The notes under the pieces: model-generated
What the model was told of the DNA's origin: nothing
Database searches by the model: none
The model's input: the letters and a program-made list of their open reading frames with translations, nothing else
Made by a program: the position numbers and the translations under genes
Virus record (IMG/VR): IMGVR_UViG_3300010361_000001
Length of the DNA: 55,539 bases
Reading direction: 5' to 3' (one strand)
From: an uncultured virus (IMG/VR IMGVR_UViG_3300010361_000001)
Taxonomy: Duplodnaviria; Heunggongvirae; Uroviricota; Caudoviricetes
Shown here: positions 5,241 through 41,891 of the stretch, in pieces
Position numbering within the stretch: position 1 is the stretch's first letter
Layout: every line of letters starts with the position of its first letter

Positions 5241-5663
5241 CTAGAACAGAGTGCCCTGACTTGGGGCGCCGGGGCGAGTATCAGGACCGGCAGGCTGTGG
5301 GGGCCTGCCTGGCTGACCGGGACCACCCCAGGGCCAGGCACCGCCACCACCTGGACCGGGACCGGGTGGCATTGGCCTGGCCCCTCCAGCCTGACCTGGC
5401 TGTGGCCTCCATCTGCCGCCTGTCCTCACGGGCCTGCCTCCACGCACCCCTGCGATGCGGAAGGTCTCAGCGTCGTTGAAGTCCTTGGCCCTCTTCCTGG
5501 CTCCCTGGAGAGCGGTGACAGCCGGGGCACCGACGTCACCGATGAAGTGGAGGGCTGGGATGAGGCCCACCACCCGGCCAGCGTGCGCTCCACCAGGGCC
5601 GATCTCAGCCATGGGGCCGATGCCCTGGGCCGCTCCCGAACTGTGGTGAAACTCCCAGGCCAC
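5241..5663 (-). CDS. Gly/Pro-rich protein ending in QGTLF
   Basis: TAGTG coupling; ends ...GAPSQGTLF*. Confidence 0.65.
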   Translation of the reverse strand: MAWEFHHSSGAAQGIGPMAEIGPGGAHAGRVVGLIPALHFIGDVGAPAVTALQGARKRAKDFNDAETFRIAGVRGGRPVRTGGRWRPQPGQAGGARPMPPGPGPGGGGAWPWGGPGQPGRPPQPAGPDTRPGAPSQGTLF

Positions 5664-6004
5664 TACCAGACCTCCTCAACCCCCACGTTACGCGCCGCCC
5701 CCTGCCAGCCCGAGACCCCGCCCGAGAGGGCGTAGCGCTGGTTCATGAAGTTGCGCTGGGCGTCCAGGCACTCGTCTATGCCCGCCTGGCGCTCCGGGTA
5801 GGTGGGGAAGCCCCACCTGGGTGGGAAGGGGACTCCGAGAGTCGCAATGGGTGGGCGCACCTCAGCCACTAGCTCCTGGCCGGGGATCATGGCCGTCCGC
5901 AGGGCTGCGGTGACCAGTAGCTCCTGGCTGGAATAGTTGGGGCCGAGTTCACGGTAGATGTCCCCACTATTTTGCAGGCGCACAGGGCGGGGGCCGTCGA
6001 TCAC
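5663..6004 (-). CDS. Hypothetical protein
   Basis: In-operon ORF of 113 aa; no gp25-like motif recognised. Confidence 0.65.
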   Translation of the reverse strand: MIDGPRPVRLQNSGDIYRELGPNYSSQELLVTAALRTAMIPGQELVAEVRPPIATLGVPFPPRWGFPTYPERQAGIDECLDAQRNFMNQRYALSGGVSGWQGAARNVGVEEVW

Positions 6005-6013
6005 GTCACAAGC

Positions 6014-6766
6014 CTAACGGGGGAAGCAGACGGTGGCAGTGCCCGCCCCCGGTCCCCTGGCTGAGCTAATCGTCAAGGTACCAGCCCCAGTCGGTGCCCA
6101 TCCCATGCTGAAGGTGTGAGGACCAGGAGTAAGCCCTGTCCACTGGCGAACCCCGAAGATATTCATGACCGTGTTTGCCGCATTGAAGCCATGCCCAGCT
6201 ACGGCATTCCAACCCCCACCATCCACGTTGCCGCCAATGGTGCAATCTATACCCGCAGATGCATAGACGTCCTGGGCTTGATAGAACACATCCACTACAC
6301 CGGAGGGACCGACCGTGACGGTCATCCGCACATTGGCATGGATCTCAGCCCAGCCCCCGGAGTTGGTCACGGTGACAGCCCCTAGCTGGGCACGGCCACC
6401 TGACAGCCCTGCGAAGGGGGTCTGCCAAGAGGCGGCGTAGTTGGCGGCACTGTTCTTGGTCAGCACCTGACCAACAGTGCCTCCCTGAGGCAGGCCAGCG
6501 TCGGGGATCTCGTTGGGTGACCCCAGGTAAGCGGGGAAGGCCGGATCACCACCCTGGAAGATGCACCAGACCATGCTGCCCACCGGAGGCAGGCTCTGCG
6601 AGTTGACCAGGGGCGGCGCCCATATGGGCACCGGGGTGGACCCGAAGATCTGAGGGATGTACAACTGGACGCGTCCCTGGCTCGACGGGTCTCGATTGTT
6701 GTAGACCCTGGCGGCGTAGACGCCTTCGTAGTGCGTGCTGGTTGGCGTGCTAACAGATGTCGACAT
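6014..6766 (-). CDS. Baseplate spike (gpV/Gp5 OB fold) fused to a fibre-like C-terminal domain
   Basis: YEGVYAARVYNNRDPSSQGRVQLYIPQI...PPVGSMVWCIFQGGDPAFP is the gpV OB-fold pattern. Confidence 0.85.
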   Translation of the reverse strand: MSTSVSTPTSTHYEGVYAARVYNNRDPSSQGRVQLYIPQIFGSTPVPIWAPPLVNSQSLPPVGSMVWCIFQGGDPAFPAYLGSPNEIPDAGLPQGGTVGQVLTKNSAANYAASWQTPFAGLSGGRAQLGAVTVTNSGGWAEIHANVRMTVTVGPSGVVDVFYQAQDVYASAGIDCTIGGNVDGGGWNAVAGHGFNAANTVMNIFGVRQWTGLTPGPHTFSMGWAPTGAGTLTISSARGPGAGTATVCFPR

Positions 6767-14825: not shown

Positions 14826-14834
14826 GTCTCCTCC

Positions 14835-17680: not shown

Positions 17681-18853
17681 GTGTCGGACGTGCAGCAGTC
17701 GAGCGAAAGCGGGATGGCGGTCCTAGCGACCACCACCTCACCGGCCACCACCAAGGTCTCAGGGCTTCCCAACCCCTACGACATCACGGCAGGGACGCCG
17801 GGGCAGTACCCCGACACCGACCAGGGACTCCCCTATCCACCTGTCAATCCCTCTTCGACACAGAGGATCGCACAGATGGCGAGGCTGCGTCTTCGGGATC
17901 TGCCCCGGCCCTTCCTGGCCCGTCAGACCTGCTCAGGGGCTGCCTGGCGCTTCGAGCTTCCCGTCGAGAACGTGTCGGCCCCCAATCTCCAGGTAGTCCT
18001 CACCGACACGAGCCAGGGAGGTACTACGGCCCTGGTCCTGGGTACTGACTACGTGCTGGACGAACACGGGGGCACCCTGGTCTTCAACACCGCTCCCCCT
18101 GGGGGGCTGCTCATGGTGGCGCAGGGCACCTACTACCGGGATTATCTCCCAGCCGAGATGGATCTCTACGTGAGGACCGCCTACATCCAGCACACCTACG
18201 GGGAGCAGCCTGCGGGTGAGGTTGACACCGGGTACCCGCCACCACCAGGGCCTCCACCCCTGGGCACGACCGGCCAGCCAGTCGCCTATGGCTCTCCGGC
18301 ACCCATGATGGTCAACGAAGTCGAGGAGTACCCGATCTCCATCCTGGTCACCATCATGGCCCTGTGGGACATGGCAGTGGGGCTGGCGCAGCAGCATGAC
18401 GTCCACACACCAGATGGCGTCACCATCCCACTGAGTCAGACCTTCAACCAAGTCACGTCCATGATCGGCCAGCTTCAGCAGCAGTACCTCGCGCTGTCCA
18501 GTGCTTTGGGAGTGGGCCTGTACCGGATCACCCAGTCGAGGCTGCGTCGGGTCTCTCGGACTACCAAGCGGCTCGTTCCCATCTACCGCCCCCAGGAATA
18601 CGACAACCTCGTTTGGCCCCAGCGGGAGATGCCACCCGTCGATGTGGTGCAGCAGATGTACACCTACCAGGGAACCTGGGACTCCACTCGGCCTTATCAG
18701 AAAAACGACCTCATCGACTACGAGAGTCGGCGCTACCTCTGTCTCCAGCCCCATACCAACATCGACCCCACCAGGGATGTAGATCCGACTACCGGCAGTG
18801 GATACTACTGGGCCTGGTCCACCATCAATACCGGCTGGGTGGGGTGGTGGTGA
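17681..18853 (+). CDS. Putative head-tail adaptor/neck protein with C-terminal CBM5/12-like module
   Basis: RLRLRD...LRRVSRTTKRLVPIY. C-terminal WDSTRPYQKNDLIDYESRRYLCLQPH. Confidence 0.6.
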   Translation: MSDVQQSSESGMAVLATTTSPATTKVSGLPNPYDITAGTPGQYPDTDQGLPYPPVNPSSTQRIAQMARLRLRDLPRPFLARQTCSGAAWRFELPVENVSAPNLQVVLTDTSQGGTTALVLGTDYVLDEHGGTLVFNTAPPGGLLMVAQGTYYRDYLPAEMDLYVRTAYIQHTYGEQPAGEVDTGYPPPPGPPPLGTTGQPVAYGSPAPMMVNEVEEYPISILVTIMALWDMAVGLAQQHDVHTPDGVTIPLSQTFNQVTSMIGQLQQQYLALSSALGVGLYRITQSRLRRVSRTTKRLVPIYRPQEYDNLVWPQREMPPVDVVQQMYTYQGTWDSTRPYQKNDLIDYESRRYLCLQPHTNIDPTRDVDPTTGSGYYWAWSTINTGWVGWW

Positions 18854-18854
18854 G

Positions 18855-19553
18855 GTGCCACGTACGCGTCAACGCCGGGTCTCGGATGAAGAGGATGAGG
18901 AATATCCGGACATCCCGCCGACGCCGAGAAGGTATCTCAACAGCACCCAGTTCGCTGGGACCGCTGCCGGTGTCCATCCACACCAGCTAGCCATCCCCGG
19001 CATGGAACACATGTCACATCCCTGGGCCAAGCACCTGGCGCGTGGCTTCATGCTCGACTTCTCCTCCTCCAGGCACACCCACACCCTGAGGGCCATGGAT
19101 GTGGAAGGGTCTGACCCCCGATACGGGCCGGATGAAGCGGCGGAACTGAACTGGGAGAGGGCACACAGCCATGTGCCGGGCGAGATCTCCCATGTGGTCA
19201 ACTACCAGGCTGGTGGCCGGGAGATTCACGGGACGGGCGTAGCCAAGGGCCTGGCCGGTGCGCTCCTGAAGTCAGCCCACCACTGGAACTTCGGCCAGGA
19301 GACCCTGCCCATCCACTCCCCGCTCCGTACCGCAGCCGGGGAGCATTTCGCCACCAAGTACCGCCCCGATCTCAAGCCAGACGTGTTGCGCCCCGCTGAC
19401 AGGGGTGGGAGTCATGTCGAGCGCCGGGTCAGGGACAAGCCTGAGTGGGAGGAGCCGGAGTGGCCCAACGTGGGTGAGCGGTTCCATCCCTTCCAGCAGG
19501 AGGTGGAGAAGCACCATCCGAAGCAGGCCAAAGGACAGGGGACACTCTTCTAA
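18855..19553 (+). CDS. GNAT-like protein with C-terminal QGTLF
   Basis: GEISHV...GVAKGLAGALL..A...PIHSPLRTAAG resembles phage GNAT folds, with a degenerate acetyl-CoA loop. Confidence 0.55.
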   Translation: MPRTRQRRVSDEEDEEYPDIPPTPRRYLNSTQFAGTAAGVHPHQLAIPGMEHMSHPWAKHLARGFMLDFSSSRHTHTLRAMDVEGSDPRYGPDEAAELNWERAHSHVPGEISHVVNYQAGGREIHGTGVAKGLAGALLKSAHHWNFGQETLPIHSPLRTAAGEHFATKYRPDLKPDVLRPADRGGSHVERRVRDKPEWEEPEWPNVGERFHPFQQEVEKHHPKQAKGQGTLF

Positions 19554-20059
19554 TGCCCATCTACGCCGCCGCCTGGGAGAGCAAGAACCAGATGCTCCGC
19601 ATGAACGAGACCATGCGGAACTACCAGCGCTACTGGGGCGAGAACGTGCTGTGGTCTGAGTACAACGCCATGTCCTCCTCCAAGAACAACGTCTACGACG
19701 AGGGGCCGTCGAGGGCCTGGTACCCACCCATCGTGCTGCCGGTGATGTTCCTGGACTTTCGCCAGGACGATCCCATCGACACAGAGGAGGGCTTCTACGT
19801 CCTGTCGACAGCGAGCGTGTGCTTCCAGGTGACTGAGGCCAACGATCGGTTCCGAGTTAGCCCCGCCAACACGGCGGCTCACTTCCGGGATCGCTTCAGC
19901 TACGACAACATCGTGTACCGGGTGACCAAGTACGAGAAGCAAGGTTTCGTCCACGGTCAGTACCTCACCATCTCCGCTCTAGGGGAGCAGGTAAAGGCCG
20001 AAGAGGTGGTTAATGACGTCCAGCAGCAGGACTTCTTCGTCCAGCAGATGGTGTGGTGA
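19553..20059 (+). CDS. Putative head-closure/neck protein
   Basis: YDEG...EGFY...DRFSYDNIVYRV; beta-rich and in the neck block. Confidence 0.55.
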   Translation: MPIYAAAWESKNQMLRMNETMRNYQRYWGENVLWSEYNAMSSSKNNVYDEGPSRAWYPPIVLPVMFLDFRQDDPIDTEEGFYVLSTASVCFQVTEANDRFRVSPANTAAHFRDRFSYDNIVYRVTKYEKQGFVHGQYLTISALGEQVKAEEVVNDVQQQDFFVQQMVW

Positions 20060-21293: not shown

Positions 21294-21310
21294 TCCTAAG
21301 GAGTTAAACC

Positions 21311-22540: not shown

Positions 22541-22541
22541 C

Positions 22542-23415
<874 letters not shown>

Positions 23416-29400: not shown

Positions 29401-30640
29401 GCTTCATACCATTGTCAGATAGCGTCAGAGAGTCAGCCACCGAGTTACCAGTGGTGATGCCCCAGGCAAAGCGATAGTGGTACAAAACTGACGTTGAGTC
29501 GTTGTTGCCTACGTTGTTAGCGGTGGCGCCATTGTTGAAGGCAACGGTGGTAGTGCAGGTCTCGGCTGTGGTGTGTAGGTCGAACTGCGCCGCTACAACA
29601 AGCTGAGTAGAAGCGGTATCCACCCCTGCCGCTGTGACCGTGGCACCAGAGGTAGCAGTACCAAGCTGATTCGCAAATCGGTCTATGGTGCTGCTCACGC
29701 CAATGCCGCTGAACTCCAGAAGCACAGCAGAGGACGTTATAGCAGTACCGGTGAGCGTAATGGTGGGAGGTGTTTCGTTGGCCCCACAGTTCGCCTTCCA
29801 ATAGACCATCCAGCTATTGCCCGTGGGTTCGTTCGACCAACCGGCAGGCGTACTAGGCGTGCCACCAGTAGAACCTGTGAGGCAGACCAAAAAGCTCCCA
29901 GGCGAAGTCGCCTGACCGTATGTAGGTGACAAGGTGTTGGTGGTTGACGTCGCCACCGTCCCCGCCTTGACCAGATACGGAGTACCCGACGCCGGGGTAG
30001 GCAATACGCTAACAAGAAGGACATCGCAGTTGGTGACGGTGCCGGTGGTGCCGTAGGCAAAGGTGTCAGTTTGAGCGGATGAGTTACCGGTGGTGAACCC
30101 GTAGCCAAAGCTGTAGTGCCCAGTGGTATTAGTAGCGGCGTTATTGGTAGTAGTAGCTGTCGCCCCGTTATTCAGGGTGTGCGTGAAGGTATTAGTGGTA
30201 TTTGCCGTCGAGTATGCAATCGACGCAGCACATATGATGAGGCAGCCAGAGACCGCATCGGGAGCGGCAAGGGTGGGAGTCAATGGGCTTGTGGTGCCAC
30301 TTGCTGGCTGCACTTGCCCGCCACCACCACCGACGCGACAACCGGAGAACTCACCAACTTGGGCCGACTGAGTCTGACCACTTACAGCAGCGAGTGTGGG
30401 GTTGGCGTCCCCACCTGTTGCCATCTTCCAGAAGAGGTTACAGACGTTGAAGGTAGTACCCTCTACACCGGTCCACAGGGTCCAGCCTGCCGGGGTAGTG
30501 GGACCGGTACCACTCCCGCTCCCGCTCTGCCAGAGGACCAGCAGATTGCCTTGGGTGGGAGACTGGGCGAAGGCGGGCGTGACAGCCGCACCGACAGTCC
30601 CGGTGACCGCAGTGCCCATGGCGACTAGGGCGGCAGCCAC
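23417..30640 (-). CDS. Giant (2407 aa) multidomain tail fibre/adhesin with lectin-like and CBM-like repeats
   Basis: Three DxF...W lectin-like units, three xFE...HY(L/V)D CBM4/9-like units, and Thr/Ala/Val-rich stalk repeats. Confidence 0.8.
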   Translation of the reverse strand: MAAALVAMGTAVTGTVGAAVTPAFAQSPTQGNLLVLWQSGSGSGTGPTTPAGWTLWTGVEGTTFNVCNLFWKMATGGDANPTLAAVSGQTQSAQVGEFSGCRVGGGGGQVQPASGTTSPLTPTLAAPDAVSGCLIICAASIAYSTANTTNTFTHTLNNGATATTTNNAATNTTGHYSFGYGFTTGNSSAQTDTFAYGTTGTVTNCDVLLVSVLPTPASGTPYLVKAGTVATSTTNTLSPTYGQATSPGSFLVCLTGSTGGTPSTPAGWSNEPTGNSWMVYWKANCGANETPPTITLTGTAITSSAVLLEFSGIGVSSTIDRFANQLGTATSGATVTAAGVDTASTQLVVAAQFDLHTTAETCTTTVAFNNGATANNVGNNDSTSVLYHYRFAWGITTGNSVADSLTLSDNGMKLSTITGKLVSFKSISTPVDVGAVAMSGSSGMGLTGTLPINYLQDGFAQTGGVDTTKWTVSDTNVATVQGPGYPYVLQITLPASSTAYHQLYSTYANYAYNYWNLTNNAISINCLSAGNQALTSLEVYPLYLTDETYNTGGKNAVFWLISQGSISTWQWVNGVRSQIGGYTAYSAYNHAFFRVRESAGTIYFDTSPNGNNWTNYTSTPDIAHINGLGVWVQAGTYNSETSATSCQFANLNIIPTLISAITDAFATAGTPDPTKWTPGTWGASSSGSVANVGGSLVLTLNAGAANGSGPNIVTNQSGGVCLIGSSCILQLAGITAGNSTTNVIQFDFRCYAGGTSLQAGMIVATKAGSPSGLAVTVGGVGPNWDPIAMQWLRIREAGGTIYYDYSPNGNAWTNFTTAVTSTVFPGNTGTQLNFMLDLVCEGTYIASTASVDNFNLPPGITTFAPGPNLVSAADSEFETALTGDWGAVSCTLAQTTAQARAGYGSLQITSTSTSTCSIGPIKVALPAGGGGQNYNIAGYVRAATVGRACSWNISFLTSGSVYISGWGGSSAGVTDTTTGWTMVSAIGMASPPNAAYLSVSLNVFSPAGAGEVHYLDSVSFSQSAGAVAGLTATPAIGATLNGATTMTIGAKVQENATLLLSGSTAMNVAGITTEQGVVPMSGSTGMTIGSIQTIPAAVAMSASTGINVSLSYRADLVGTTSMTVVGQQITGRRYSFSPSRIYIGGAAGAIGMVGTSGMTVGAIVREIAAVSVSATAGLTLGSAVLIAAQKMAVLQDAFATAGTPDTNKWIVSTSGGTVANSGGNLTISLPAGSPVGNGGLVYAGSTGTAPNGTYYDLTESYAVVQVSNAGVQTDSSHQVLVTILLYDQDGNDFGWWIQNNQIGWVDQTGAVNGRVAYVATTYQWLRIREHAGTTYFDYSANGNIWSNFVSVPDTTWIYPPQYLQPVIQFDSQTSSGLPAQTATFDNFNLPPPVTAYGPVTGNLLTGDASDFEASVGGWTALTGTTIATSTAQANTGTHSLALTSTSGGNITAVSAHTGASAAPAVPFQNYTVTAYVRAAATGRQVSIGINFYDSAGNQLFSGGSVYINDTTTGWTQGSQTWTSPANTAYVACFVMVLATATSEVHYVDTVVAQQAPGAVASLTVAGAPIEVASVAQSATSGMTVAASVKQLANVTLAGGASLNLSTTGQQFGTVALSGTAGMTVASTGAVTQVASVSMAATSTATVAGFITWLASVALGPANSTLSVTTSLVTEVASVGLSGTAGLTVTGGRTQFATVPLVGTGGLVAGAMVQQYAAVSMAGTGNLVASLAGFTAGTVTMASLTNLTVGTFIVIEVASVAMSASASASMAGQVQQNASITQTGVAALTVTGTRIVPSAVTMTPVTTLTATGVETYVFTISLSGTGTLTAAGMTQENATVAMSGSAGLIASLAGFWFGTVNMTPGTTLTVGSAVTEIASVAMNGQTTLNVFGAQVQFSPVAMAATAGLTVATSVQENAIVGTNVLSAADSEFETGVGFTWGGQNNTVARTNAVTAHNGSYCLAITATTTAGGSASCGWSYYGATPGQTYTASMWVMGGANLRNVQSEILFFAANGSTVVGSAFGSVVAESSSTWQFSTVSMVAPAGAVYVAVYWRNNSAASAIGEVHYVDSAQVLSPYGATASMTVGGLTVEQASVSLSATTTLTTAGTTQENASVALVPVSSLTVAATVARVAVVAMSGTGSLTVAPLVTELASVSMAATAHLSVTPIVYGFVTMASTASLALTVAVQEVASFAGVAITSLSVAAGVAELASVNLVGTGTLTATALRIAVSTVSMLPVSTLSLTNVHVQQNAVVSFNVTASLTMTYQALGVVSMAATAGLTMVARSWSIIQGQVSMSGTASLQVIPQVTATIHFVAVTSLNITARMIIGVAPGFSATTDMEVDVGVYHYAQVMMSVSAKLTVDADVRRKAPSLFDQIQALEGQDPIMVGATGYMDDIFTTRLVSDSE

Positions 30641-31152: not shown

Positions 31153-31155
31153 GGC

Positions 31156-31719: not shown

Positions 31720-32297
31720 CCCGTCCCCCAGTAGCTGATCTCCAGGCGAGTGTTGATAAAGCCGGTCTGCACAGCGTTAGCGGAGTTCATGTAGCCGGTC
31801 AGCCGAGCGGTCTCTCCACCGGCAGCGGGATACCAACCCAGGGTGCGACAGCCGATCCCGCCCCCCGTCAGAGGGCTGGTCTGATTGTCGCAGCACTGAT
31901 TGTTGAAGGTGGTGAGCGCGCCCACACTGTTGACCTGGATGTACATCTGCACATACTGACTGGCAGCAGTGCTGGTCCCGTTCAACTGGCCCATCAGGCG
32001 ATACCACCCAGGCACCGGCAGCAGAAAGCCGTAGTTAGGGCTGCCGGTGAACAGACCCCAGGTGTCCCATTGCCTGGTGTCCAGGGCTATGACAGCGTTA
32101 GCCGTGGCGAAGGTGAGAGCAGCGTTGCGGAAGTAAACGGCGTGGATCTGGTCGCGTGCCTTCCGCCAGGCCCCACCGAAGACGCCGTTCTTGGCTACCC
32201 ACCACTCGCCCCATACATCCTGGAAGGTCTGGATGGTGGTGCCGGTGGTAACTGGGGGCGGCAGGTCGTTGAGGGTGACATAGCTCTGGATGCTCAT
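31716..32297 (-). CDS. Tail fibre tip paralog 2
   Basis: Same N-terminal motif; ends YWGTG. Confidence 0.75.
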   Translation of the reverse strand: MSIQSYVTLNDLPPPVTTGTTIQTFQDVWGEWWVAKNGVFGGAWRKARDQIHAVYFRNAALTFATANAVIALDTRQWDTWGLFTGSPNYGFLLPVPGWYRLMGQLNGTSTAASQYVQMYIQVNSVGALTTFNNQCCDNQTSPLTGGGIGCRTLGWYPAAGGETARLTGYMNSANAVQTGFINTRLEISYWGTG

Positions 32298-32854
32298 CCT
32301 GACCCCAGGTACATGACTTCCAGATGAGTGATGATGCCGACAGTCACGGCGTTAGCCACGCTCTGGTAAGCCTGAAGGTTGATGATGGTGCCTGCGGGCA
32401 TGTAGAGAAGGCACTGGGTGCGCCAGAACAACCCGGTGGCGGCGCTCTGGATCACGTTGTCACTGGATGCACCAACGCCGTTGTAGCAAATCGAACCCTG
32501 GATGTACTGGCTGCCCGCACTGGTGCTACCACAGATGGTGCCCTGGCACAGCCACCAGCCCTGACAACCCAGCGTGAACCCGTTGCTGGCGGGCGTCCAC
32601 ATGCCGTATTGATCGTTGCGTTGCACGTCGTAGGGGAAGACGACCTGGCTGGTGGTCATGGTGTAAGCGGCATTTCGGTAGGCGATGGCATGCATGACAT
32701 CGCGTGCCCGCTTCCAGACGCCGCCGTACACCCCAACCTTGGCGACCCACTGCTCACCGTTGACGTCGATGAAGGTCTGGATGCCAGAGCCACTCGTGAC
32801 CGGGGGTGGCAGGTTATTGACCGGGACACTGGTGGGGGTCTGGATGACGCTCAT
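32294..32854 (-). CDS. Tail fibre tip paralog 1
   Basis: TGATG start at 32854; same motif; ends YLGSG. Confidence 0.75.
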   Translation of the reverse strand: MSVIQTPTSVPVNNLPPPVTSGSGIQTFIDVNGEQWVAKVGVYGGVWKRARDVMHAIAYRNAAYTMTTSQVVFPYDVQRNDQYGMWTPASNGFTLGCQGWWLCQGTICGSTSAGSQYIQGSICYNGVGASSDNVIQSAATGLFWRTQCLLYMPAGTIINLQAYQSVANAVTVGIITHLEVMYLGSG

Positions 32855-34182
32855 CAGCCCGTACCTTGATAAGCGACATGACACCACTGACCCAAACCGC
32901 TGGCGATGGTGTTCATGGCTACTTGGGTCTGAACCCAGCAGGCGAGCGTGTCGCCAGCGGCACAGTAGATCCGATCAGTCACCGTCACGTAGGTGACGTA
33001 GGTGGTCTGACCGGAGTATGAGTTGACCGCAACAGTCGTAGCGTTGTTCTGCCGAATCTGAGCCTGCACGTACTGTCCGGTGGTAGCTGTAGCCAACGCA
33101 CCCGTGTAATAGGTGAGGAGATACCAGCCAGCTATAGGACAGGTGAACGTAGAAGAGGCCCCGGTAGTCCACAAGCCGTAGATGTCTCTCGTTATGGTAT
33201 CGAAGCCATTATTGATAGCAGTTGCCGCCGCACACGCCAGCGCAGCAGCCCGAGTTACCTTGGTTTGAAGCACATCCCTGGCGTCGTACCAGTTGCCTCC
33301 GCTGACGCCGTTCTTGGCAACGTAGACCTGACCGGTGGGAGCGGTATAGCTCTGCACCGTGGTGCCTGAGGTAACCGGGTTCGGAAGGTTAGGTGTGCGG
33401 GCATCCACGTATGCCTTCGGCGCGAGATCCGACGCCAGCACCGGGGTGGCAGCCGGGGCGGCACCATAGATCACCACATTCATGGCGTTGGGAGTGGCTG
33501 CCGTCACCGACACCGAGATCTGGTTGTTGTTGAGGATGTCCACCTGAGCCATGATCAGCATGGTGGTGACGGCATCCCACAGTTGCACCAAGAGGTTCTG
33601 CGTGTTCAGGTTGTGGGTGACGGTGTAGCTCTGGCCTGCGCTCAAGACGGGCACCGTCTGCACCACCACCGGACCACGCGTAAAGGGCCGGGAGTCCGTT
33701 ATGTTGGCCGTGACGATGCTGGTGACCTGAGGGCCAACCAGCACCTGAGCCAGGGTCATGGAGTCAGCAGGGGCCGTAGGAGCTACCTGGGAGCCAGTAG
33801 CGGCAGCCGTGCCAGTGACCGTGGTGAAGATGAAGTCGCTGAAGCCACCCGAGTCCACGAAGGCGTCACGCACCTGGGCGATGACGAGGTCGATGCGTGA
33901 CTGGCCCGCACCAGGAGCCGTGGGGATGGTGACGTTGTCGACAGCGTCCGAGAAGATCTCGTAGTTGCCCTGGTTGGCGATGAAGTTGCCCTGGACCATG
34001 CCCCGCCCAGGTGCGATGTCGAGGACCATGGACGCGCCAGCAGCGTGCTGGGAGACGGCGAACGCACCCGTGCCAGACAGCAGACAGGAGTTGCTGGTGC
34101 CCATTGCATCCATGAGCAACAGGCGATCTAGCTGTGCCGGGTACGTCCCGTTCTGCATCCAGTTCGGGGTGTACCTCGCCAT
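32854..34182 (-). CDS. Minor tail/fibre protein with virion-anchor N-terminus and the same tip module
   Basis: RIDLVIAQVRD...LAQV.V...ITD.R is an actinophage minor-tail motif. C-terminal tip ends YQGTG. Confidence 0.8.
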   Translation of the reverse strand: MARYTPNWMQNGTYPAQLDRLLLMDAMGTSNSCLLSGTGAFAVSQHAAGASMVLDIAPGRGMVQGNFIANQGNYEIFSDAVDNVTIPTAPGAGQSRIDLVIAQVRDAFVDSGGFSDFIFTTVTGTAAATGSQVAPTAPADSMTLAQVLVGPQVTSIVTANITDSRPFTRGPVVVQTVPVLSAGQSYTVTHNLNTQNLLVQLWDAVTTMLIMAQVDILNNNQISVSVTAATPNAMNVVIYGAAPAATPVLASDLAPKAYVDARTPNLPNPVTSGTTVQSYTAPTGQVYVAKNGVSGGNWYDARDVLQTKVTRAAALACAAATAINNGFDTITRDIYGLWTTGASSTFTCPIAGWYLLTYYTGALATATTGQYVQAQIRQNNATTVAVNSYSGQTTYVTYVTVTDRIYCAAGDTLACWVQTQVAMNTIASGLGQWCHVAYQGTG

Positions 34183-34192
34183 GGTGGAGGTA

Positions 34193-35453: not shown

Positions 35454-35456
35454 CTC

Positions 35457-36467
35457 TTAGTTTGTCCACGCTTGTACTACACTTTGATCGGTTATCAAAC
35501 CGAATCCCCAAATCGCATACCAGCAGAGCGCGTGTTCACGTCCGAAGTCGAGGACGCCACCGTCACGAAGCTCGACGGGGAGAGCTATGGCGTGGCCGAA
35601 GGCATTGTCGCCCAGGTACAGCGCCCCATGGGTGACGCCAGCGTTGCCCTGGCCGGTGCCGCCAGCGGGGCCTGCACCAGGAGCGTACTGCCGAATCTGA
35701 GTGGTTTCGATGTATACCACGTCATTTAGACGACCTATCTCGCCTATCATGAAGTTTCCCGCAGCAGCGTACTTGGTCATTTCGATGAACTCTGGGTTAT
35801 CTCGTAGCCTTCTGGACTGGTGAGGGTCGATGAAGGATACGTAGGTCTCACCGATGCGGGGGACGTTCTTCGTCGCCAGGGTCTCGACGGCGTCCTTGCT
35901 GACGTTGACGCTCATGTACTGGGTGCCAGCCAGGGCCGCATAGTTCGCTGCCACGGTGCCCTGGTCGTACGGGCTGATCGGCGTGATGGCGCCAGTCGGC
36001 AGGGCGTAGCCGAAGATGGTGGAGGACGACTGGTACAGGGTGTCGCGTGCGGACCCGTCCAGGTACTTCGCCATGTTGCGGCCCAGGAGCCGGGAGGACG
36101 ACGCCATGACGTCATCGAACGAGGCGTTCAGCAGTAGCTCGCTGACGGCCACTGCGTAGCCCTGCTCTGCCACGGTGATGGCGTACTGGGAGGCAGTCAG
36201 CGCAGCGGTCTGCATGCGGACACCTTCCACCAACTGTGTGGCATCGCCCAGGTTGTTGTAACGCATGAAGTTGATCTGGAGACCTGGCTGCACGCCAAGC
36301 TCTGTCTTCTTCACGGCGAACTGTTCAAACCGTAAAACCGGCATGCTCTGGAAGAGGATTTCCTTCGACCAGATGACCTGGATGGCGGGCGAAAGCTGCG
36401 AGTTAGTACCCGGATAACCAGTCGGGCTGGCACTCAGCAGCGGGGTTCCAGTGATGCTAGAAGGCAC
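35457..36467 (-). CDS. Major capsid protein (N4-gp56 family, HK97 fold)
   Basis: LRFEQFA...INFMRY..L..LVEG...GEIGRL..V.YIET...DFGR. Confidence 0.92.
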   Translation of the reverse strand: MPSSITGTPLLSASPTGYPGTNSQLSPAIQVIWSKEILFQSMPVLRFEQFAVKKTELGVQPGLQINFMRYNNLGDATQLVEGVRMQTAALTASQYAITVAEQGYAVAVSELLLNASFDDVMASSSRLLGRNMAKYLDGSARDTLYQSSSTIFGYALPTGAITPISPYDQGTVAANYAALAGTQYMSVNVSKDAVETLATKNVPRIGETYVSFIDPHQSRRLRDNPEFIEMTKYAAAGNFMIGEIGRLNDVVYIETTQIRQYAPGAGPAGGTGQGNAGVTHGALYLGDNAFGHAIALPVELRDGGVLDFGREHALCWYAIWGFGLITDQSVVQAWTN

Positions 36468-36498
36468 AGTGCCTACCTCCGTTTTAGGGTACTACCTC

Positions 36499-37293
36499 TT
36501 ATTGCCTGCGACTCTGAGAGGCCGCTCGCAGCAAGTTGTCTCGTTCAGCAGCGTACTCTTCGGGGGTCATCGCCTTGAGTTCATCCGCCGTATACGTACG
36601 TGACGTCTGCGACGTTTCCATAGGGCCAACTGGGGGCGCTGTGACACCCACCATGGGACGGCCCGCATTGATGTTCCGAAAAGCATTGACGGCATTTTGT
36701 TGGATCAGAGCGGATTTTTGAATAAGAAGCTCGATGCTGGCATCAATCTCTTGCTCAGTATTTCCGCTGACTAGATCCCGAAGTTCGGGAGATATTTCCT
36801 CACTGTGTTCAGCCATACGCTGAGCTAGGTACGTCTGGAGACCGGCGTGATGACGCTCTTGCTCAAGCAGAGCAAAGGCTCTTTCCCTCTCCTGGCGCTC
36901 CTCAGCGAGACGAGCCTCCCACTCCTCATCCTTCTTCTGGATGAGGTCGCGTAGCTCCATCTCCTCCTCTTCTTTTTTCTTCGTAGCCCGTGCAGCCTCA
37001 CGTTGGGCCTTGGTCTCGGCAGCAATCCGATCCTCGTCAGCCTTGCGGTACTGGGCGAGTTGGTTCTCCAGGTCATCCGCACGCTGCTGCTCTGTGGAGT
37101 AGCGGGCACGCTCTTCCTGGCGGATGCGCTCGACATCCTCCTGGGTGAACGCCTGGGGCGGCTCACCCGTACGCTGGGTACGAGGTGGCTGAGCCGGTGG
37201 CTCAGGCGGGGTGACTGGCACCGTGATGGTGGTGCCATCGTCAGGCGGCTGCGGTGGGTCGCCTTGGGTGGGGTCTGGTTCGGTGGCGGTCAT
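36499..37293 (-). CDS. Capsid scaffolding protein
   Basis: FTQEDVERIRQEE, coiled coil and terminal M..EEYAA.R..L; lies upstream of the MCP. Confidence 0.85.
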   Translation of the reverse strand: MTATEPDPTQGDPPQPPDDGTTITVPVTPPEPPAQPPRTQRTGEPPQAFTQEDVERIRQEERARYSTEQQRADDLENQLAQYRKADEDRIAAETKAQREAARATKKKEEEEMELRDLIQKKDEEWEARLAEERQERERAFALLEQERHHAGLQTYLAQRMAEHSEEISPELRDLVSGNTEQEIDASIELLIQKSALIQQNAVNAFRNINAGRPMVGVTAPPVGPMETSQTSRTYTADELKAMTPEEYAAERDNLLRAASQSRRQ

Positions 37294-38261
37294 GTCCTCT
37301 TCTTCCTCCTGGCTAGCTGTTGCTTGTAGCGAGTCACGGCCTTGCGCCGTAGCTGGGCGTGTTCCTTGCGGCCCTGGTTCCTCCGGGCTGCCTGGTAGTC
37401 CTCGACGTCGGCCCGCTTGCGCTCCTCCGCACCCGACTCACTGAGTTGTGGGTCGTAGCCAGGCATGGTCTTGGGCGTGGTGCCCCGGAACCCATAGGTC
37501 TGCCGCTGGATGTTGAACCCAGTGCGCCGCTGGTTGCGGGGATCGTTCTGGAAGTGCTGGAGCATGAACCGATCGGCGGCACCTTCGGTCTTGCCCACCC
37601 CGGTGCGGCTCTTGAGGTAGCGCGTGGTGCGCTCCGGCGTCATCTCGCGTGACGAACCCACCGGGAACCGGGTGGTGAAGTCGACGTGGTGGCCGATCTC
37701 GTGCATGAGGCCAGCATCAAACCGGGGTAATGCCCGCTTCAGAGAGGTGGGCTTGCCCCTCCCTCCCGTGATGCTCGTGACCACCCCACCCTTGGGGCCT
37801 TTAACCGACAGGTCGCCCTTGAGGGGGTACATGTTGATCTGCCGGTTGGCAGGCTCATAGTCCCCCATGACCGATGGCGTGCCGGTCACATACTGCATAC
37901 CCGAGTGGAGGTGGATCCCACTCAGATCCTTCAGCTTGGTCACATCCATCGAGGACCGGGCGATGGCCTCCTGGACCAGGCGCCTGCCATGGGGCGCGTT
38001 GTAGGGGCTGTCCAATGTGGAGCCAGTCAGGGTGTGGCTATAGGGCTGATCCCCTCCAGTAATGACCGGGCCATGCTCCTTTACGGCAGCCATGCGCTCC
38101 GGGCTGTAGCCCCTGGGCCAGCGGGCTGGCGTCTGCGGCTTGCCCTCCTGGAAGAGCTTCCCCTGGGTGGGCTGGGCGCGCTTCTCCGGGCTACCACGGT
38201 GCGGGTAGTACGGCTTCATGGGACCGAACTGGGAGTCGTTGAGGTTCTCCGGTTCGGTCAT
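37290..38261 (-). CDS. HExxH zinc metallopeptidase-like protein
   Basis: GDY..ANRQINM, LMHEIGHHVD and a downstream EGAAD; internal QGKLF. Confidence 0.7.
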   Translation of the reverse strand: MTEPENLNDSQFGPMKPYYPHRGSPEKRAQPTQGKLFQEGKPQTPARWPRGYSPERMAAVKEHGPVITGGDQPYSHTLTGSTLDSPYNAPHGRRLVQEAIARSSMDVTKLKDLSGIHLHSGMQYVTGTPSVMGDYEPANRQINMYPLKGDLSVKGPKGGVVTSITGGRGKPTSLKRALPRFDAGLMHEIGHHVDFTTRFPVGSSREMTPERTTRYLKSRTGVGKTEGAADRFMLQHFQNDPRNQRRTGFNIQRQTYGFRGTTPKTMPGYDPQLSESGAEERKRADVEDYQAARRNQGRKEHAQLRRKAVTRYKQQLARRKKRT

Positions 38262-40021
38262 GACTGCTCGTCTTCTTCAGGCACCCGGCGCTGCGGGATG
38301 GTGGTGCCATGCGCCAACGACACGATGCGCTGGAACATCTTCGCCACGTCGGCGTTGTCCTTCAGGTCCAGGCCCGGTGCGCTGGCGATCTTGGCCGTAG
38401 GCGCCGTGTTGACCTGAGGGCCACCGGCAGACTTCACATCACTGCTGCCGTTCTTCTTGTCGCCATTGCCATTGCCGTTGGCCGGTGGAGGTGGCATGGG
38501 CTGTGGCCCCTCCGGGGACACCATGCCGGTCATGTTGACGATGAGAGAGGACACCTGGGCGCGCAGCATCTCCAGCGCAGCCTGTTGCTCAGCGTCGTCC
38601 AGTAGCTCCTTGAAAAGCTCCTGGAGCTTCTCGTCGGGGAACTCCTCACCAAGCTCCTGGAGGGCGCCCCGCTTGGACTCCAGCCCGAGCGCCATCTTGA
38701 CCTGTAGCTCGTTGAGCAGCACCAGTTGGTCGACCGGCAGAGGCGGCTGAAAGTGGACGGTGTTCTCGTAGGTCACCGGATCCATCGGATCCAGCATCGG
38801 TAGCTGGTCATCCCGGAGCGGGGGATCCCACTCCGGGTTGTAGACCAGCGTCTCAGGCTCCTTCATGAAGAGCGTCTTCAGTGCCAGCCGGTTGACCTCA
38901 GCAAAGCCTTCCCCATACTGGGTGGCCTTGAGATGGAACCTGTTCATGAGTGGCTGGTACTGGATCGCCAGAGCCACGCCACTCGTGTTGGAGATCGCCT
39001 GCTCCTCGCCCAGGGCGGTCACCGGCACACCGGTCATCTCGTGCATGGCGCGCTTGAGGACGTCGAGCAGCTTGATGGCCTCCTCGATGCCCCGTGGGTC
39101 GAAGAGCAGGTTCTCTACCTTGGCCTCCTTGTTCGGGATCGACCATGTCTGGTGCGACCCCTTCTCCAGGTTGGAGGCCCTGGCCCCGATCACCACCGTT
39201 ACCGGAGCGGCGTGGTAGTTCACTATGTCGGTGATGTCGGTTGCCACCTCGTTGTAGGTGCGGTTCAGCACCGTCACGTCCTGGATGTCAGGCATGCCCC
39301 AGGGCGAGCTAGCGATGGGCAGGTTGGAGATATGCACGATGGGGATCTCACCCAGTGGGTTCTCCCGAGAGTCGATCAGTTCGTCGTTGACGTACTCCTC
39401 GATCTGATTCTCGGTGAGCAACTCGGTGTAAGTGAAGACCTGGCGAGTGCCCTCCATCGTGGTGCCCCAAAAGCGGTACTTCAGCTTGAAGCGGATGAGC
39501 CGCTTGCGGTCGTGGGGATGCCACTCCGGGAAACAGAACGCTGAGTTCAGGGGCAGAACCCGCACTCTGCCGGGATGTGGCATCCCCGCTGGATCGGTCC
39601 AGGGTTCCTCGTAGGCAACCTTTACGAAGCTATCCCCCGTGACCGAACCCATGGACCCCATCTCCCACAGGAGGGAGTCCTTCCGGTTGTCCTTCTCCCA
39701 AATGCGCTGGAGGCGCGTGGGAACGATGGCGGCAGTGGCGTCTGGTGATCGGAAGCCGACGCCCTTACCGAAGACGAAGTTAGTGGTGAAGTCCGACAGT
39801 GCCCGCACGTAGTTAAACGTGAGTTGCGGCTCCCCCAGGTCCGGGCGCTGCGCCCAGTGGTAGCCCAGGTAGAAGGCCCAGTTCATGGCGTAGCGGTTGA
39901 GCCTGGGGCCGTGGACCTCAAACTCTTCGTCCGCTAGCTCCACCAGCCCGAGCGGGCTTATCTGGATCGTAAGATCCGATGACGCCGCTCTATAGCTGGG
40001 GGACTGGAACTGGATGGACAT
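38258..40021 (-). CDS. Portal protein
   Basis: FNY..A..DF, TGDSFVKV, NPLGEIP.VH..N, SNTSGVAL. Confidence 0.9.
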   Translation of the reverse strand: MSIQFQSPSYRAASSDLTIQISPLGLVELADEEFEVHGPRLNRYAMNWAFYLGYHWAQRPDLGEPQLTFNYVRALSDFTTNFVFGKGVGFRSPDATAAIVPTRLQRIWEKDNRKDSLLWEMGSMGSVTGDSFVKVAYEEPWTDPAGMPHPGRVRVLPLNSAFCFPEWHPHDRKRLIRFKLKYRFWGTTMEGTRQVFTYTELLTENQIEEYVNDELIDSRENPLGEIPIVHISNLPIASSPWGMPDIQDVTVLNRTYNEVATDITDIVNYHAAPVTVVIGARASNLEKGSHQTWSIPNKEAKVENLLFDPRGIEEAIKLLDVLKRAMHEMTGVPVTALGEEQAISNTSGVALAIQYQPLMNRFHLKATQYGEGFAEVNRLALKTLFMKEPETLVYNPEWDPPLRDDQLPMLDPMDPVTYENTVHFQPPLPVDQLVLLNELQVKMALGLESKRGALQELGEEFPDEKLQELFKELLDDAEQQAALEMLRAQVSSLIVNMTGMVSPEGPQPMPPPPANGNGNGDKKNGSSDVKSAGGPQVNTAPTAKIASAPGLDLKDNADVAKMFQRIVSLAHGTTIPQRRVPEEDEQS

Positions 40022-40237
40022 CTACTTCTTGGCCTGCCCTGGTGCCTGCCGACTCTGGTTGTAGAAGTCGACCTGAGTGACCGGTAGCGACCTGCGGTAC
40101 TGGACGCGCATCTGCGCGTGGGCGGTCTGACGGTCCAGTTGCTTCGACTTGGACAGCGCTGCCACCCCAACCTGGCGGGGCCGGGTGAAGGTGTAGGTGA
40201 GCCGGGATGACGCCAGGATGGTGGGCGGCGCAGCCAC
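40022..40237 (-). CDS. Small basic hypothetical protein
   Basis: Coupled ORF in the head operon. Confidence 0.55.
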   Translation of the reverse strand: MAAPPTILASSRLTYTFTRPRQVGVAALSKSKQLDRQTAHAQMRVQYRRSLPVTQVDFYNQSRQAPGQAKK

Positions 40238-40437
40238 TACTCGTCGCCAGCCCGGTGCGTCGGTGACCCCCGGAAGACCTGCTCCACCAGACCACCAAGC
40301 TGACTGGGGTTGGGCGCACGGCCCATCCTCCTGGGCGAGGACGACATGGGATTGGCGTGGGGGTCACGCCGGTCGTTCCACAGCGTCTGCACATCCATGT
40401 ACTCGACGGGTACGCCTTTGACTTTGGGCTGCTTCAT
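40237..40437 (-). CDS. Small hypothetical protein
   Basis: TGATG-coupled ORF. Confidence 0.55.
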   Translation of the reverse strand: MKQPKVKGVPVEYMDVQTLWNDRRDPHANPMSSSPRRMGRAPNPSQLGGLVEQVFRGSPTHRAGDE

Positions 40438-41891
40438 CAGAACAACGTCCCTTGGTGATGGCCGAACTGGACCGGGTGGGCGATGGGCGGGTATGACTGG
40501 GCCTCTGAGGGCAACTGAGACTTGAGCCGAGCGATCGGCTCCTTCTCGTGACGCTGGATCTGCTCCTCACCCCACTGCGCCGCCTGGCCCTGCCTTAAAC
40601 GGCGGATCCCCCGTTTTTCCATGGCCTGGCGAGCGGCGTAGTCAGCCATGGCGTGCCAGCCCGAGACCTCCATGGCCTCCTCGCGCTCAGCCTTCTCAGC
40701 CATGGGTCTGCCGGTCTTGGGGTTGATCACCACATTGCCCTGCTCATCCCGGCGCAGGGGCTGCTCGTGGCCCAGGTGAGGCAGCATGCCGCCACCCCCC
40801 GAGTGGATGTCGGAGACGAAGTAGTCAGGGTGCCCTGGCAGCCAGGAGTTGTGGTACGCCGCCGTCTTGGGGCCGAAGCCCGACTTCTCACCACCGTGGT
40901 GGGCGTAGGTCTCTGGCACGGTCTTGCCTCCGAAGATGACCTGATGCGCCCGCCGTGCCGCCTTGTACATGTTGGCGTTGATGACGCTGCGGGCCTTACC
41001 AGCCAGGCCCGTCTTGGTCACCTTGTTGGGGTCCACGCCAGCCTGGACCTGCTTGACCACATGGTGAGCCAGTTCGGCATTGGGGTAGGAGACCTGGCCT
41101 GCCTTGCTCACGAACCGGAAGGTCATCTTCGGGGACGTGTCCGCATTGGCCGACGCGATCAAGCCCATGGGCACCTGGGACTCAGCAGCGTGGCCGTGCA
41201 GTACAGACCCGGCCTCACCGTGAGGGTGGTAGAAGGTCATGGCGAACGGCTCCTTGGCCCCGACCCGGCGCGCCCGCAAGTACGCCTGGTCAAGCTGGGC
41301 GCCGAAGTCCCTGGTCATGGTGTCCAGGGTCGCCCCCGATGCCGCCTTGACCCGACGCTGGATGTCCTCCTGCTGCTTGGGGCTGTGATCCTCCCACCGC
41401 TTGGGTGTCGCCAGGGCATGGGGATCCTCCATGCCCGGTAGCTGCTGCTCCCCGATACCAGGCCCCTCCGGGTGCTGCTCAAACCCGTAGTGGGCGTACG
41501 CCTGGGCGTGGGTCAGCTTGAGCCGCTTCTGCTTGGTCAGCCCCAGTTCTGGACGCTCCTCAGCCAGCTTGTTGTGCTGTTCGGTGGCGTAGTCCACGAT
41601 GTCACGGGAGCGGGCCTGGCCCGCCTTGGACCGCTCCCAGTTCCGGCGCCGCCTGGTCATCTTCTCGGTCTTGGCCTTCTGCTCCGACGCCCTGGCCTGA
41701 CGTCGAGACTCGGCTTCCGCCTTCGACTGGGCTATCTCTTCCTTGCTCCGGCGTGCCTTGGGCGCCGGGGCTGACTCAGTGGCTCCAGGCTGGGTGCTGC
41801 CGCCGAACTGACGGCCAGCGTTCCGGGCGCGCCGAACGACGGGAGGGGGCGCCTCGTTGACATCCCAGCCAGGCTCCTGGACCGCAGCCAC
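40437..41891 (-). CDS. DUF7178-like / HhH DNA-glycosylase-like protein ending in QGTLF
   Basis: A..SP...N...GPKTAAY.N...SDIH...Y.A...G...Q.QA..W pattern. Confidence 0.6.
   Translation of the reverse strand: MAAVQEPGWDVNEAPPPVVRRARNAGRQFGGSTQPGATESAPAPKARRSKEEIAQSKAEAESRRQARASEQKAKTEKMTRRRRNWERSKAGQARSRDIVDYATEQHNKLAEERPELGLTKQKRLKLTHAQAYAHYGFEQHPEGPGIGEQQLPGMEDPHALATPKRWEDHSPKQQEDIQRRVKAASGATLDTMTRDFGAQLDQAYLRARRVGAKEPFAMTFYHPHGEAGSVLHGHAAESQVPMGLIASANADTSPKMTFRFVSKAGQVSYPNAELAHHVVKQVQAGVDPNKVTKTGLAGKARSVINANMYKAARRAHQVIFGGKTVPETYAHHGGEKSGFGPKTAAYHNSWLPGHPDYFVSDIHSGGGGMLPHLGHEQPLRRDEQGNVVINPKTGRPMAEKAEREEAMEVSGWHAMADYAARQAMEKRGIRRLRQGQAAQWGEEQIQRHEKEPIARLKSQLPSEAQSYPPIAHPVQFGHHQGTLF

Follow-up and report, generated by a model that had tools for sequence, protein, structure and literature searches.

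A probable host clamp-binding motif and a candidate capsid address on unrelated late proteins of a BRock-like phage

What could read a five-residue motif carried by four unrelated proteins of a single phage? A preliminary description of this DNA had pointed to three open reading frames (ORFs) that end in QGTLF followed by a stop, in differing codons, and to a fourth with QGKLF near its start, and had read the motif as a hook for the host beta-clamp, DnaN. The window, that is, the whole 55,539-nucleotide stretch that was analyzed, comes from a BRock-like actinobacterial myophage, uncultured, of soil-type actinobacteria. Its portal is 54-55% identical to those of the Streptomyces phages BRock and GiJojo. 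This likeness to BRock, together with a WhiB gene, suggests Actinobacteria as the host phylum; two scans of genome contigs turned up no related prophage and gave no host by that route. The relevant features are as follows.

5241..5663, minus strand: small protein, 140 aa, with a Gly/Pro-rich tail ending in QGTLF, after the tail genes
5244-5258, minus strand: QGTLF-stop, C-terminal end of the 5241-5663 protein
18855..19553, plus strand: GNAT-fold protein, 232 aa, with LNSTQF, QLAIPG and a terminal QGTLF, in the plus-strand late block
18936..19001, plus strand: LNSTQF (candidate capsid tag), then HPHQLAIPG (hexamer-like motif)
19536-19550, plus strand: QGTLF, clamp-binding-type motif, C-terminal end of the GNAT-like protein
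35457..44092, minus strand: head-gene block (capsid, scaffold, portal, terminase) of a BRock/GiJojo-like phage
35457-36467, minus strand: major capsid gene (PHROGs and Pfam)
36499-37293, minus strand: scaffold gene (PHROGs and Pfam)
37290..38261, minus strand: zincin-like metallopeptidase, 323 aa, HEIGH at 37689-37703, between portal and scaffold
38151..38243, minus strand: zincin N-terminal arm, with LNDSQF at aa 7-12 and QGKLF at aa 33-37
38151-38165, minus strand: QGKLF (aa 33 of 323) of the zincin-like protein
38258-40021, minus strand: portal gene (PHROGs and Pfam)
40437..41891, minus strand: HhH-GPD glycosylase-like protein, 484 aa, DUF7178-related, between terminase and portal
40440-40454, minus strand: QGTLF, clamp-binding-type motif, in the glycosylase-like protein's disordered C-terminus
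40464..40478, minus strand: HPVQF, a relaxed L[NS]xxQF form just upstream of QGTLF
42449-44092, minus strand: terminase gene (PHROGs and Pfam)

The observations that opened the question hold. The three QGTLF-stop endings were recovered with the coordinates and codons first reported, the QGKLF of the fourth ORF lies where the list places it, and the additional QLAIPG and QQLPG on two carriers were found at 18984-19001(+) and 41433-41447(-). The carriers are unrelated, as had been claimed, since the four proteins fall into four distinct blastp families, and Pfam and PHROGs match none of the four. They are spread over three transcription blocks amid virion genes, the late setting proposed for them, and carrier genes alternate with the terminase, portal and scaffold genes and show translational coupling to them.

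QGTLF is terminal in 3 of 62 genes, and for these 62 hand-picked genes of the window the chance of any one terminal pentamer recurring unchanged in three genes is about 7e-8. At any position in the same genes, QGxLF occurs 4 times (0.19 expected); plain QxxLF, with 4 observed and 2.0 expected, is unremarkable alone. A general enrichment of QxxLF across the clade was rejected (32 versus 26.5 expected); comparisons across the clade used relatives' genomes and contigs in place of the complete genome of the window. A count of terminal motifs against shuffled sequences, suggested at the outset, came out divided: in the clade there is enrichment, limited to the terminal and QGxLF forms, but four distant relatives have 3 terminal QxxLF motifs versus 0.54, with a shuffle maximum of 3, which is no clear excess.

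The early guess that the 40437-41891 protein has a glycosylase-like fold gains moderate support. The model has a pLDDT of 91, which drops below 50 at residues 479-484, indicating that the QGTLF tail is disordered. In structural comparison the best match, with Z 7.9, rmsd 4.0 and 185 aligned residues, is to an 8-oxoG glycosylase, and the top 20 matches are without exception glycosylases or enzymes of queuine salvage; Foldseek found nothing at E<=0.001, and an Atlas structure search added no information. Residues K342, D361 and H363 are invariant in 75 sequences of the family, of which 2 match DUF7178, and K342/D361 presumably correspond to the catalytic Lys/Asp pair of endonuclease III. Besides its C-terminal HPVQF and QGTLF, the protein carries NAGRQF near the N-terminus and QQLPG at aa 149. 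Among its homologues, 57 of 83 have the pentamer motif within the last 45 aa (2.1 in shuffled tails) and 10 of the remaining 26 have the hexamer QxxLxF (0.92 expected), while 12/83 have no motif. At the HPVQF site, homologues have LNSGQF, LNSEQF, LNQEQF or INQRQF instead.

The GNAT-like fold proposed for 18855-19553 is likewise moderately supported. In this case the pLDDT is 63, falling below 50 at residues 224-232, again the disordered QGTLF tail; the best structural match has Z 5.8, rmsd 3.5 and 92 aligned residues, and acyltransferases make up nearly all of the 50 structural matches. Pfam matched none of 21 family members. QxxLF is present in the last 20 aa of 19/22 homologues, L[NS]xxQF in 16/22 and QLA[IL]PG in 15/22, and the six homologues without L[NS]xxQF are gene calls from later starts.

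The product of 37290-38261, first guessed to be a Zn-protease, is predicted to be a Zn-metallopeptidase of the zincin type, an assignment with moderate support. HExGH is kept in 12/12 homologues, and H187, E188, H191 and the downstream E226 are invariant in the 12 sequences, the HExxH-plus-Glu arrangement. Weak Pfam matches occur among the 12 (Peptidase_M78 in 2, M66 in 1), and structural neighbours in the Atlas include LPD1 polyvalent proteins, below the naming threshold. QG[KT]LF is found in 11/12 homologues, and strict [LV][NS]xxQF, at either terminus, in 7/12. The gene is an optional insert, occupying the portal-scaffold gap of 7/40 close-clade loci (duplicates included, counted by eye), and its candidacy as a prohead protease was rejected for this reason.

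Conservation of the motif, which had been posed as a critical property, is thus seen in three of the four families, where Q, L and F are retained; Q1 and a hydrophobic pair at positions 4 and 5/6 are kept in 71/83, 19/22 and 11/12 homologues of the glycosylase-like, GNAT-like and zincin-like proteins, respectively. The 5241-5663 family fails in this regard. It is conserved by position, after the tail genes, but 0/42 representatives have the QGTLF tail, and across 18 syntenic loci the tail is confined to two that are near-identical to the window phage. Here the tail is a recent gain, specific to the lineage of the window phage.

Is this a clamp motif? Known beta-clamp motifs are a pentamer, Q-phi-x-[LM]-[FL], or a hexamer, Q-phi-x-[LM]-x-[FL], and switching between the two is typical (excerpt of PMC11139829). 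The switch is present in DinB controls too. Relatives whose capsids are 55-70% identical have QLNLF, QESLF, QFSLF or QFTLF in place of QGTLF, and the canonical QLSLF appears in 3 homologues. A search of IMG/VR for QG[T/K/N]LF-stop in a single codon version gave 21 loci, with 8 Mor/MuC-like activators, several of them near-duplicates, and 1 integrase among them (Mor matches in 7 at E<=0.1, 2 above cut-off). Mor/MuC-like activators were found with a terminal QGKLF, the same ending as the motif in the zincin arm, and in MuC the motif at the C-terminus binds the clamp (excerpt of PMC12867686). The modelling that had been proposed as a check was run for the GNAT-like tail: a complex with Streptomyces coelicolor DnaN, a stand-in clamp, reached 0.67 versus 0.02 for the best control, a value that the model may owe to known structures of clamp-peptide complexes, the mark being reached by 116/157 solved pairs and 2/215 mismatched pairs. 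Contacts agree between runs to 73% or more, the pLDDT of the partner is no lower than 47, and the interface consists of partner residues 224-232; the pocket was identified from approximate residue numbers relative to E. coli.

In several respects the phage motifs resemble those of known clamp clients, with fixed Q1, L4 and F5, free positions 2 and 3, a disordered terminus, pentamer and hexamer forms and, in the model, a place in the same pocket; they differ in having Gly at position 2, frequent K/R at position 3 and basic flanks (excerpt of PMC11139829). Gly2 is seen in 49/77 phage motifs versus 3/37 DinB motifs, K/R at position 3 in 43/77 versus 1/37, and the flanks are net basic (+0.9). Thus, the rule of an aliphatic position 2 and a neutral or acidic position 3 does not hold for the phage set, and it seems to be a preference rather than a requirement, since Gly2 also occurs in the 3 DinB motifs and in Mor-like proteins. 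The surround of the clamp pocket is positively charged and Gly2 reduces affinity (excerpt of PMC11139829), so weak binding is predicted from Gly2 and a basic position 3. Some tails have lost Q1 (HPTLF, HPSLF, HQxLF). Taken together, the conservation pattern, the canonical variants, the natural positive controls and the model support the clamp reading well, and QG[T/K]LF is probably a binding motif for host DnaN, likely of modest affinity.

A second tag, L[NS]xxQF, was missed in the preliminary description and is new here. It stands at the N-terminus of 25/1280 clade proteins versus 0.79 in shuffles, the zincin and the GNAT-like protein included, and in four more distant relatives 8/504 proteins have it (0.2 expected). 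Its codons vary among carriers, which indicates retention at the peptide level. In the clade it is borne by GNAT and ParB-like proteins, and an ADP-ribosyltransferase of a relative ends in QGKLF. The proteins tagged with L[NS]xxQF are low in Cys (0.2% versus 1.3%). A DNA scan with the N-terminal-tag pattern found 8 loci on 6 contigs, 5 of which carry the clade's portal, a restriction partly by design because the pattern was built from the clade. The T4 internal proteins, diverse and variable small proteins, share an N-terminal capsid targeting sequence (excerpt of PMC3012670), and L[NS]xxQF resembles it as a short N-terminal tag on diverse, variable small accessory proteins; it differs in sequence and occurs near C-termini too. 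As a packaging signal, a role once suggested for QGTLF, L[NS]xxQF is the better candidate, and the chances are slightly in favour of its being an address, specific to the clade, by which accessory enzymes enter the prohead. Cultured GiJojo has L[NS]xxQF in 0/174 proteins and also lacks the QGxLF tag, and therefore offers no virion proteome for comparison.

The explanation that best accommodates both tags, though it falls just short of an even chance, is that of packaged effectors with two addresses, first the capsid and, after injection, the host clamp. The glycosylase-like, GNAT-like and zincin-like proteins would be made late and loaded into the prohead by L[NS]xxQF; after ejection into the next cell, the clamp hook would concentrate the enzymes on clamp-loaded DNA, most likely at host replication forks. 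There they might nick DNA or excise bases, or modify proteins of the replisome or of host defence by acetylation or cleavage. The cargo would also be a competitor for the clamp pocket, and the phage would meanwhile replicate with its own PolA and helicase. Packaging and recruitment upon injection are proposed from the gene context, the domain types and the L[NS]xxQF tag. A broader version, in which interchangeable enzymes (glycosylase, acetyltransferase, protease, ADP-ribosyltransferase) strike the host replisome before phage gene expression, is more tentative; a related DpdA-like guanine modification might then shield phage DNA from the glycosylase. If correct, a hook of five residues would direct injected phage proteins to a defined hub of the host, the clamp would be a landing site for virion-linked effector domains with mostly unknown targets, and an actinobacterial phage family would have a six-residue capsid-loading tag.

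Parts of this scheme have precedents. Zincin, GNAT, ART and ParB-like domains are characteristic of polyvalent proteins that are late and linked to the virion (excerpt of PMC5512222), and here too they lie beside virion genes; polyvalent proteins are fused and multi-domain, whereas these are separate small single-domain genes united by tags. PMC5512222 does not use the words 'clamp' or 'sliding', and literature searches found no description of these two tags or of clamp-targeted virion cargo. The usual bearers of clamp motifs are replication, repair and transposition proteins, in contrast to the late accessory enzymes seen here. As targets for halting host replication, clamps are also met by SocB, the toxin of a toxin-antitoxin system and a clamp inhibitor (excerpt of PMC9690074), and by phage Twort Gp168 (PMC8565349), which obstructs the DNA channel of the clamp; neither is a tagged enzyme set.

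Alternatively, QGxLF could bind host DnaN while the proteins act late in the producing cell, unpackaged, to shut off host replication or to process phage DNA on which host clamps are loaded, with L[NS]xxQF serving another role. Late-expressed or late-acting clamp binders such as MuC exist, and Mu MuC/Mor are likewise phage proteins with a terminal QxxLF on the host clamp, but they are one activator family working in the producing cell, unlike the several unrelated and probably packaged folds described here (excerpt of PMC12867686). The 5241-5663 protein, which has no L[NS]xxQF tag, gained its QGTLF tail without the second tag, as such action would allow. Coupling of the genes to terminase, portal and scaffold argues for packaging, as do domain types described for virion-delivered effectors (excerpt of PMC5512222) and an N-terminal tag on diverse small proteins in the T4 internal-protein pattern (excerpt of PMC3012670); action in the producing cell is rather unlikely.

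Also unlikely is a single extended tag, [LVI][NSH]PxQ[FLMG]x[LI][FP], borne whole or halved and recognized by one phage reader (prohead interior, portal or scaffold) for packaging only, its resemblance to clamp motifs being incidental. The tags do overlap, merge (VNPNQFKLF, VHPHQLAIPG) or adjoin in many homologues, and they co-occur (p 8e-6; p 9e-4 within one family, kinship ignored), yet co-occurrence is not the substitution expected of tag halves. It is late accessory genes that carry the motifs, with none at the ends of the window phage's replication proteins, and Gly2 with a basic position 3 is atypical of clamp clients; a single receptor leaves unexplained the switch between pentamer and hexamer, the shift towards exactly canonical motifs (capsids 55-100% identical) and the presence of QGKLF in Mor-like activators, which are unrelated. 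In other clades the scaffold ends in GLFG (e.g., SGQGKGLFG), but such tails have no conserved Q and this clade's scaffold, ending in RRQ, has no LF tail, and scaffold-tail mimicry was rated low on these grounds; the excerpts of the 80alpha gp44 paper do not mention such a motif.

A divergent phage-encoded clamp beyond the window is a much less probable target. T4 gp43 bears a C-terminal motif for gp45, and gp33 and gp55 do as well. The latter two are documented in the cited excerpt (PMC9690074). The T4 proteins thus share a short C-terminal clamp hook among unrelated proteins of one phage, but the T4 clamp serves replication and late transcription, whereas here no phage clamp was found and the motif is absent from the family-A polymerase. 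The window is less than half of a 117.6-kb contig, and very divergent clamps can evade Pfam. Nevertheless, searches of five relatives each (two and four near-complete) detected positive controls and no DnaN domain, and none is annotated in GiJojo; a gp45 search matched nothing, controls included.

Least probable are chance, given the probability above, a DNA-level repeat, given that codons and upstream DNA differ among carriers, and protease cleavage sites, which the recurrence of QF in the tags would favour but which a terminal QGTLF, with no residue beyond it to remove, and a head block whose sole protease-like gene is optional do not. In T4, capsid tags are linked to cleavage by the prohead protease, which removes the targeting sequence. 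Pfam, PHROGs and locus comparison identified no conserved prohead protease gene in this head block. The proteins tagged with L[NS]xxQF are low in Cys (0.2% versus 1.3%).

The QGxLF pentamer, a beta-clamp (DnaN)-type motif, is present in four proteins of the window. Its positions are those given in the preliminary description, the codons differ between copies, and the carriers are indeed unrelated, with no homology among them:

5241-5663, minus strand: 140-residue protein, member of a positionally conserved family
18855-19553, plus strand: 232-residue GNAT-like protein (fold Z 5.8, model pLDDT 63)
37290-38261, minus strand: 323-residue zincin-like protein (HExGH in 12/12 homologues, plus an invariant downstream Glu)
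40437-41891, minus strand: 484-residue glycosylase-like protein (fold model pLDDT 91)

The QGxLF observation is real. QGTLF closes three of 62 hand-picked window genes (probability ~7e-8 that any three have an identical terminal pentamer), and QGxLF is found 4 times, with 0.19 expected. Within the 1280 proteins of the window and ten relatives, QGxLF occurs 17 times vs 2.4 in shuffles; QxxLF overall is not enriched (32 vs 26.5). The count of terminal motifs in relatives proposed in the preliminary description gives 10 near-terminal QxxLF vs 1.5 shuffled in the same genomes.

In structure, the glycosylase-like protein comes closest to an 8-oxoguanine glycosylase (Z 7.9, rmsd 4.0, 185 aligned); its best 20 matches are all glycosylases or queuine-salvage enzymes. 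Of 83 homologues found, 75 were aligned, and K342, D361, and H363 do not vary among them; K342 and D361 probably correspond to the catalytic pair of endonuclease III. The GNAT-like fold of the 232-residue protein is predicted with modest confidence. Only 7 of the 40 close-clade loci (duplicates counted) have the zincin-like gene at its place between the portal and scaffold genes, and thus it is accessory. Small clade-conserved genes of no known family adjoin tagged genes (~5018-5233, 40022-40437, and 41894-42328, all minus strand); possibly, they encode core virion proteins.

Conservation of the motif, which the preliminary description had made a test of its idea, holds for three of the four families. 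Tails of the glycosylase-like family contain the pentamer Qxx[LM][FLW] in 57/83 homologues vs 2.1 in shuffles (maximum 8, 500 shuffles); of the remaining 26, 10 have the hexamer QxxLxF (0.92 expected; maximum 6, 1000 shuffles), 4 a relaxed pentamer, and 12 no motif. The variants include QLSLF, QMKLF, and QFKLF, as well as QLNLF, QESLF, and QFSLF in phages whose capsids are 55-70% identical. QxxLF is kept in 19/22 GNAT homologues and QG[KT]LF in 11/12 zincins. The QGTLF tail of the 5241-5663 protein, in contrast, is seen in only 2 near-identical loci among 18 and in 0/42 family representatives, and is a recent gain. The clamp motif, by its published definition, comprises pentamer and hexamer forms with a fixed Q and terminal hydrophobics (PMC11139829; bioRxiv 10.64898/2026.05.27.728225; PMC4549789).

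A second tag, L[NS]xxQF, is a candidate capsid-loading address. With our own codon-model gene calls on the window and ten relatives, [LIV][NSH]xxQF lies within the first 25 residues of 25/1280 proteins vs 0.79 in shuffles (maximum 5, 200 shuffles), frequently as MSHRAL[NS]xEQF with varied codons. More distant relatives have it in 8/504 proteins (0.2 shuffled), and GiJojo, a cultured Streptomyces phage, in 0/174. In the window, the zincin contains LNDSQF, the GNAT LNSTQF, and the glycosylase-like protein the relaxed forms NAGRQF and HPVQF. In relatives, GNATs and ParB-like proteins are among those that carry the tag, and a relative's VIP2-type ADP-ribosyltransferase ends in QGKLF; such domains have been described as effectors that are expressed late and linked to the virion (PMC5512222). 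The tagged proteins are rich in His and poor in Cys. At one locus (L326:412-2890), two tandem unassigned proteins each have an LxxxQF start, an internal QxKLF, and a QGTLF end, and a third has NPQGQF near its start. Residues ~45-51 of the capsid protein (35457-36467, minus strand), LRFEQFA, resemble the tag form LNPEQFA; this segment is equally conserved in tag-bearing and tag-free clades.

The likeliest reading, held tentatively, is that the glycosylase-like, GNAT-like, and zincin-like carriers are packaged cargo: synthesized late, they would be loaded through L[NS]xxQF, ejected, and docked on host DnaN via QGxLF, bringing glycosylase, acetyltransferase, and protease to clamp-loaded DNA. T4 loads its internal proteins in this way, by an N-terminal tag common to small proteins of diverse kinds (PMC3012670). 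Clamp binding without packaging is unlikely, if the best of the alternatives. Somewhat behind it, and also unlikely, is the reading of both tags by a single phage-internal receptor. The two tags co-occur in 6/26 cases (p 8e-6) and within one family (p 9e-4), kin not being independent in either figure; their spacing is variable, and some merge via a common Gln.

How well QGxLF would bind a clamp was weighed against high-GC DinB genes from metagenomes (80 loci of at least 120; 57 complete, one non-DinB reading removed). A clamp motif is present in 37/57, with position 2 Leu in 23/37 and Gly in 3/37, and position 3 K/R in 1/37; phage motifs have Gly2 in 49/77 and K/R3 in 43/77, with net basic flanks. 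Because Gly2 reduces clamp affinity, albeit not as much as losing the Gln does, and the surroundings of the pocket are positively charged (PMC11139829), these features together are the main result counting against strong clamp binding. A DNA scan for a single codon form of QG[T/K/N]LF-stop gave 21 loci in IMG/VR: 8 Mor/MuC-like activators, several near-duplicates (7 with a Mor match at E<=0.1, 2 above cut-off; the other assigned by likeness), 1 integrase, 2 tagged proteins of the present kind, and 10 short, unassigned, or doubtful ORFs. The QGKLF or QGNLF ends on the activators and the integrase belong to unrelated phages (L327, L329-L331, L334, L340-L342, L335). Mutational tests are reported to show clamp binding by the terminal motifs of MuC (PMC12867686), and so Gly2/Lys3 forms stand where the clamp motif does in a family of verified clients.

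The complex of S. coelicolor DnaN, a stand-in clamp, with GNAT-like residues 200-232 was modeled, as the preliminary description had suggested for actinobacterial DnaN. The score is 0.67 (best control 0.02); the pass mark was attained by 116/157 solved complexes and 2/215 mismatched pairs; contact agreement between runs is at least 73% and partner pLDDT at least 47. Partner residues 224-232 contact clamp residues 169-174, 245-250, 280-282, 322, 348, and 368-375, mostly near E. coli pocket residues when compared by numbering. Since the solved structures include many clamp-peptide complexes, the model shows likeness, not binding.

Each search for a DnaN domain covered five relatives (2 and 4 at least 90% complete; controls positive in 10-11/14 genomes) and found none. 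The GiJojo annotation lists none either, and the motif is absent from PolA, DnaB, and the SSB-like protein of the window. Thus, if QGxLF is read by a clamp, this is most likely that of the host; a cryptic phage-encoded clamp is improbable. Loose matches, all internal, are present in the window's primase, SNF2 helicase, and loader. Least probable of all is that the motif is a cleavage site or chance. Clamp-like motifs (QLSLPL, QQQLF, and QGELF) also begin a few genes outside virion blocks (G013 33017-33301; G002 32179-32382; L138 ~18202, minus strand); these are isolated cases and may be due to chance.

The window is a portion of a contractile-tailed phage and includes genes for terminase, portal, scaffold, capsid, sheath, tube, PolA, and DnaB. 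The portal shares 54-55% identity with its counterparts in Streptomyces phages BRock and GiJojo, and WhiB is encoded as well, which makes an actinobacterium the most likely host:

45125-45625, plus strand: WhiB with Zn-ribbon tail
45622-46197, plus strand: DnaC/IstB-like loader, next after the WhiB gene

The late genes at 17681-23415 (plus strand), which encode a head-tail protein, collagen-like proteins, and an amidase endolysin, form a block that runs opposite to the head and tail genes on either side.

Precedents exist separately for clamp motifs, a phage protein that uses the host clamp (MuC), clamp tails common to several proteins (T4; PMC9690074), clamp inhibitors (PMC8565349), and capsid tags; in the open-access literature searched, neither the L[NS]xxQF tag nor virion cargo with clamp hooks was found described. 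In several other clades, and in GiJojo among them, the scaffolds (L050-L088) end in GLFG or similar; no glycosylase-like gene was seen in these loci, many of them short. Outside the window's region, a gene of relative G002 (27953-29425; L090:8953-10425) shares 32% identity with the GiJojo gene annotated as a DpdA-like transglycosylase and comes after the tagged-gene cluster there and in G003; the phage family may modify guanine in its own DNA.
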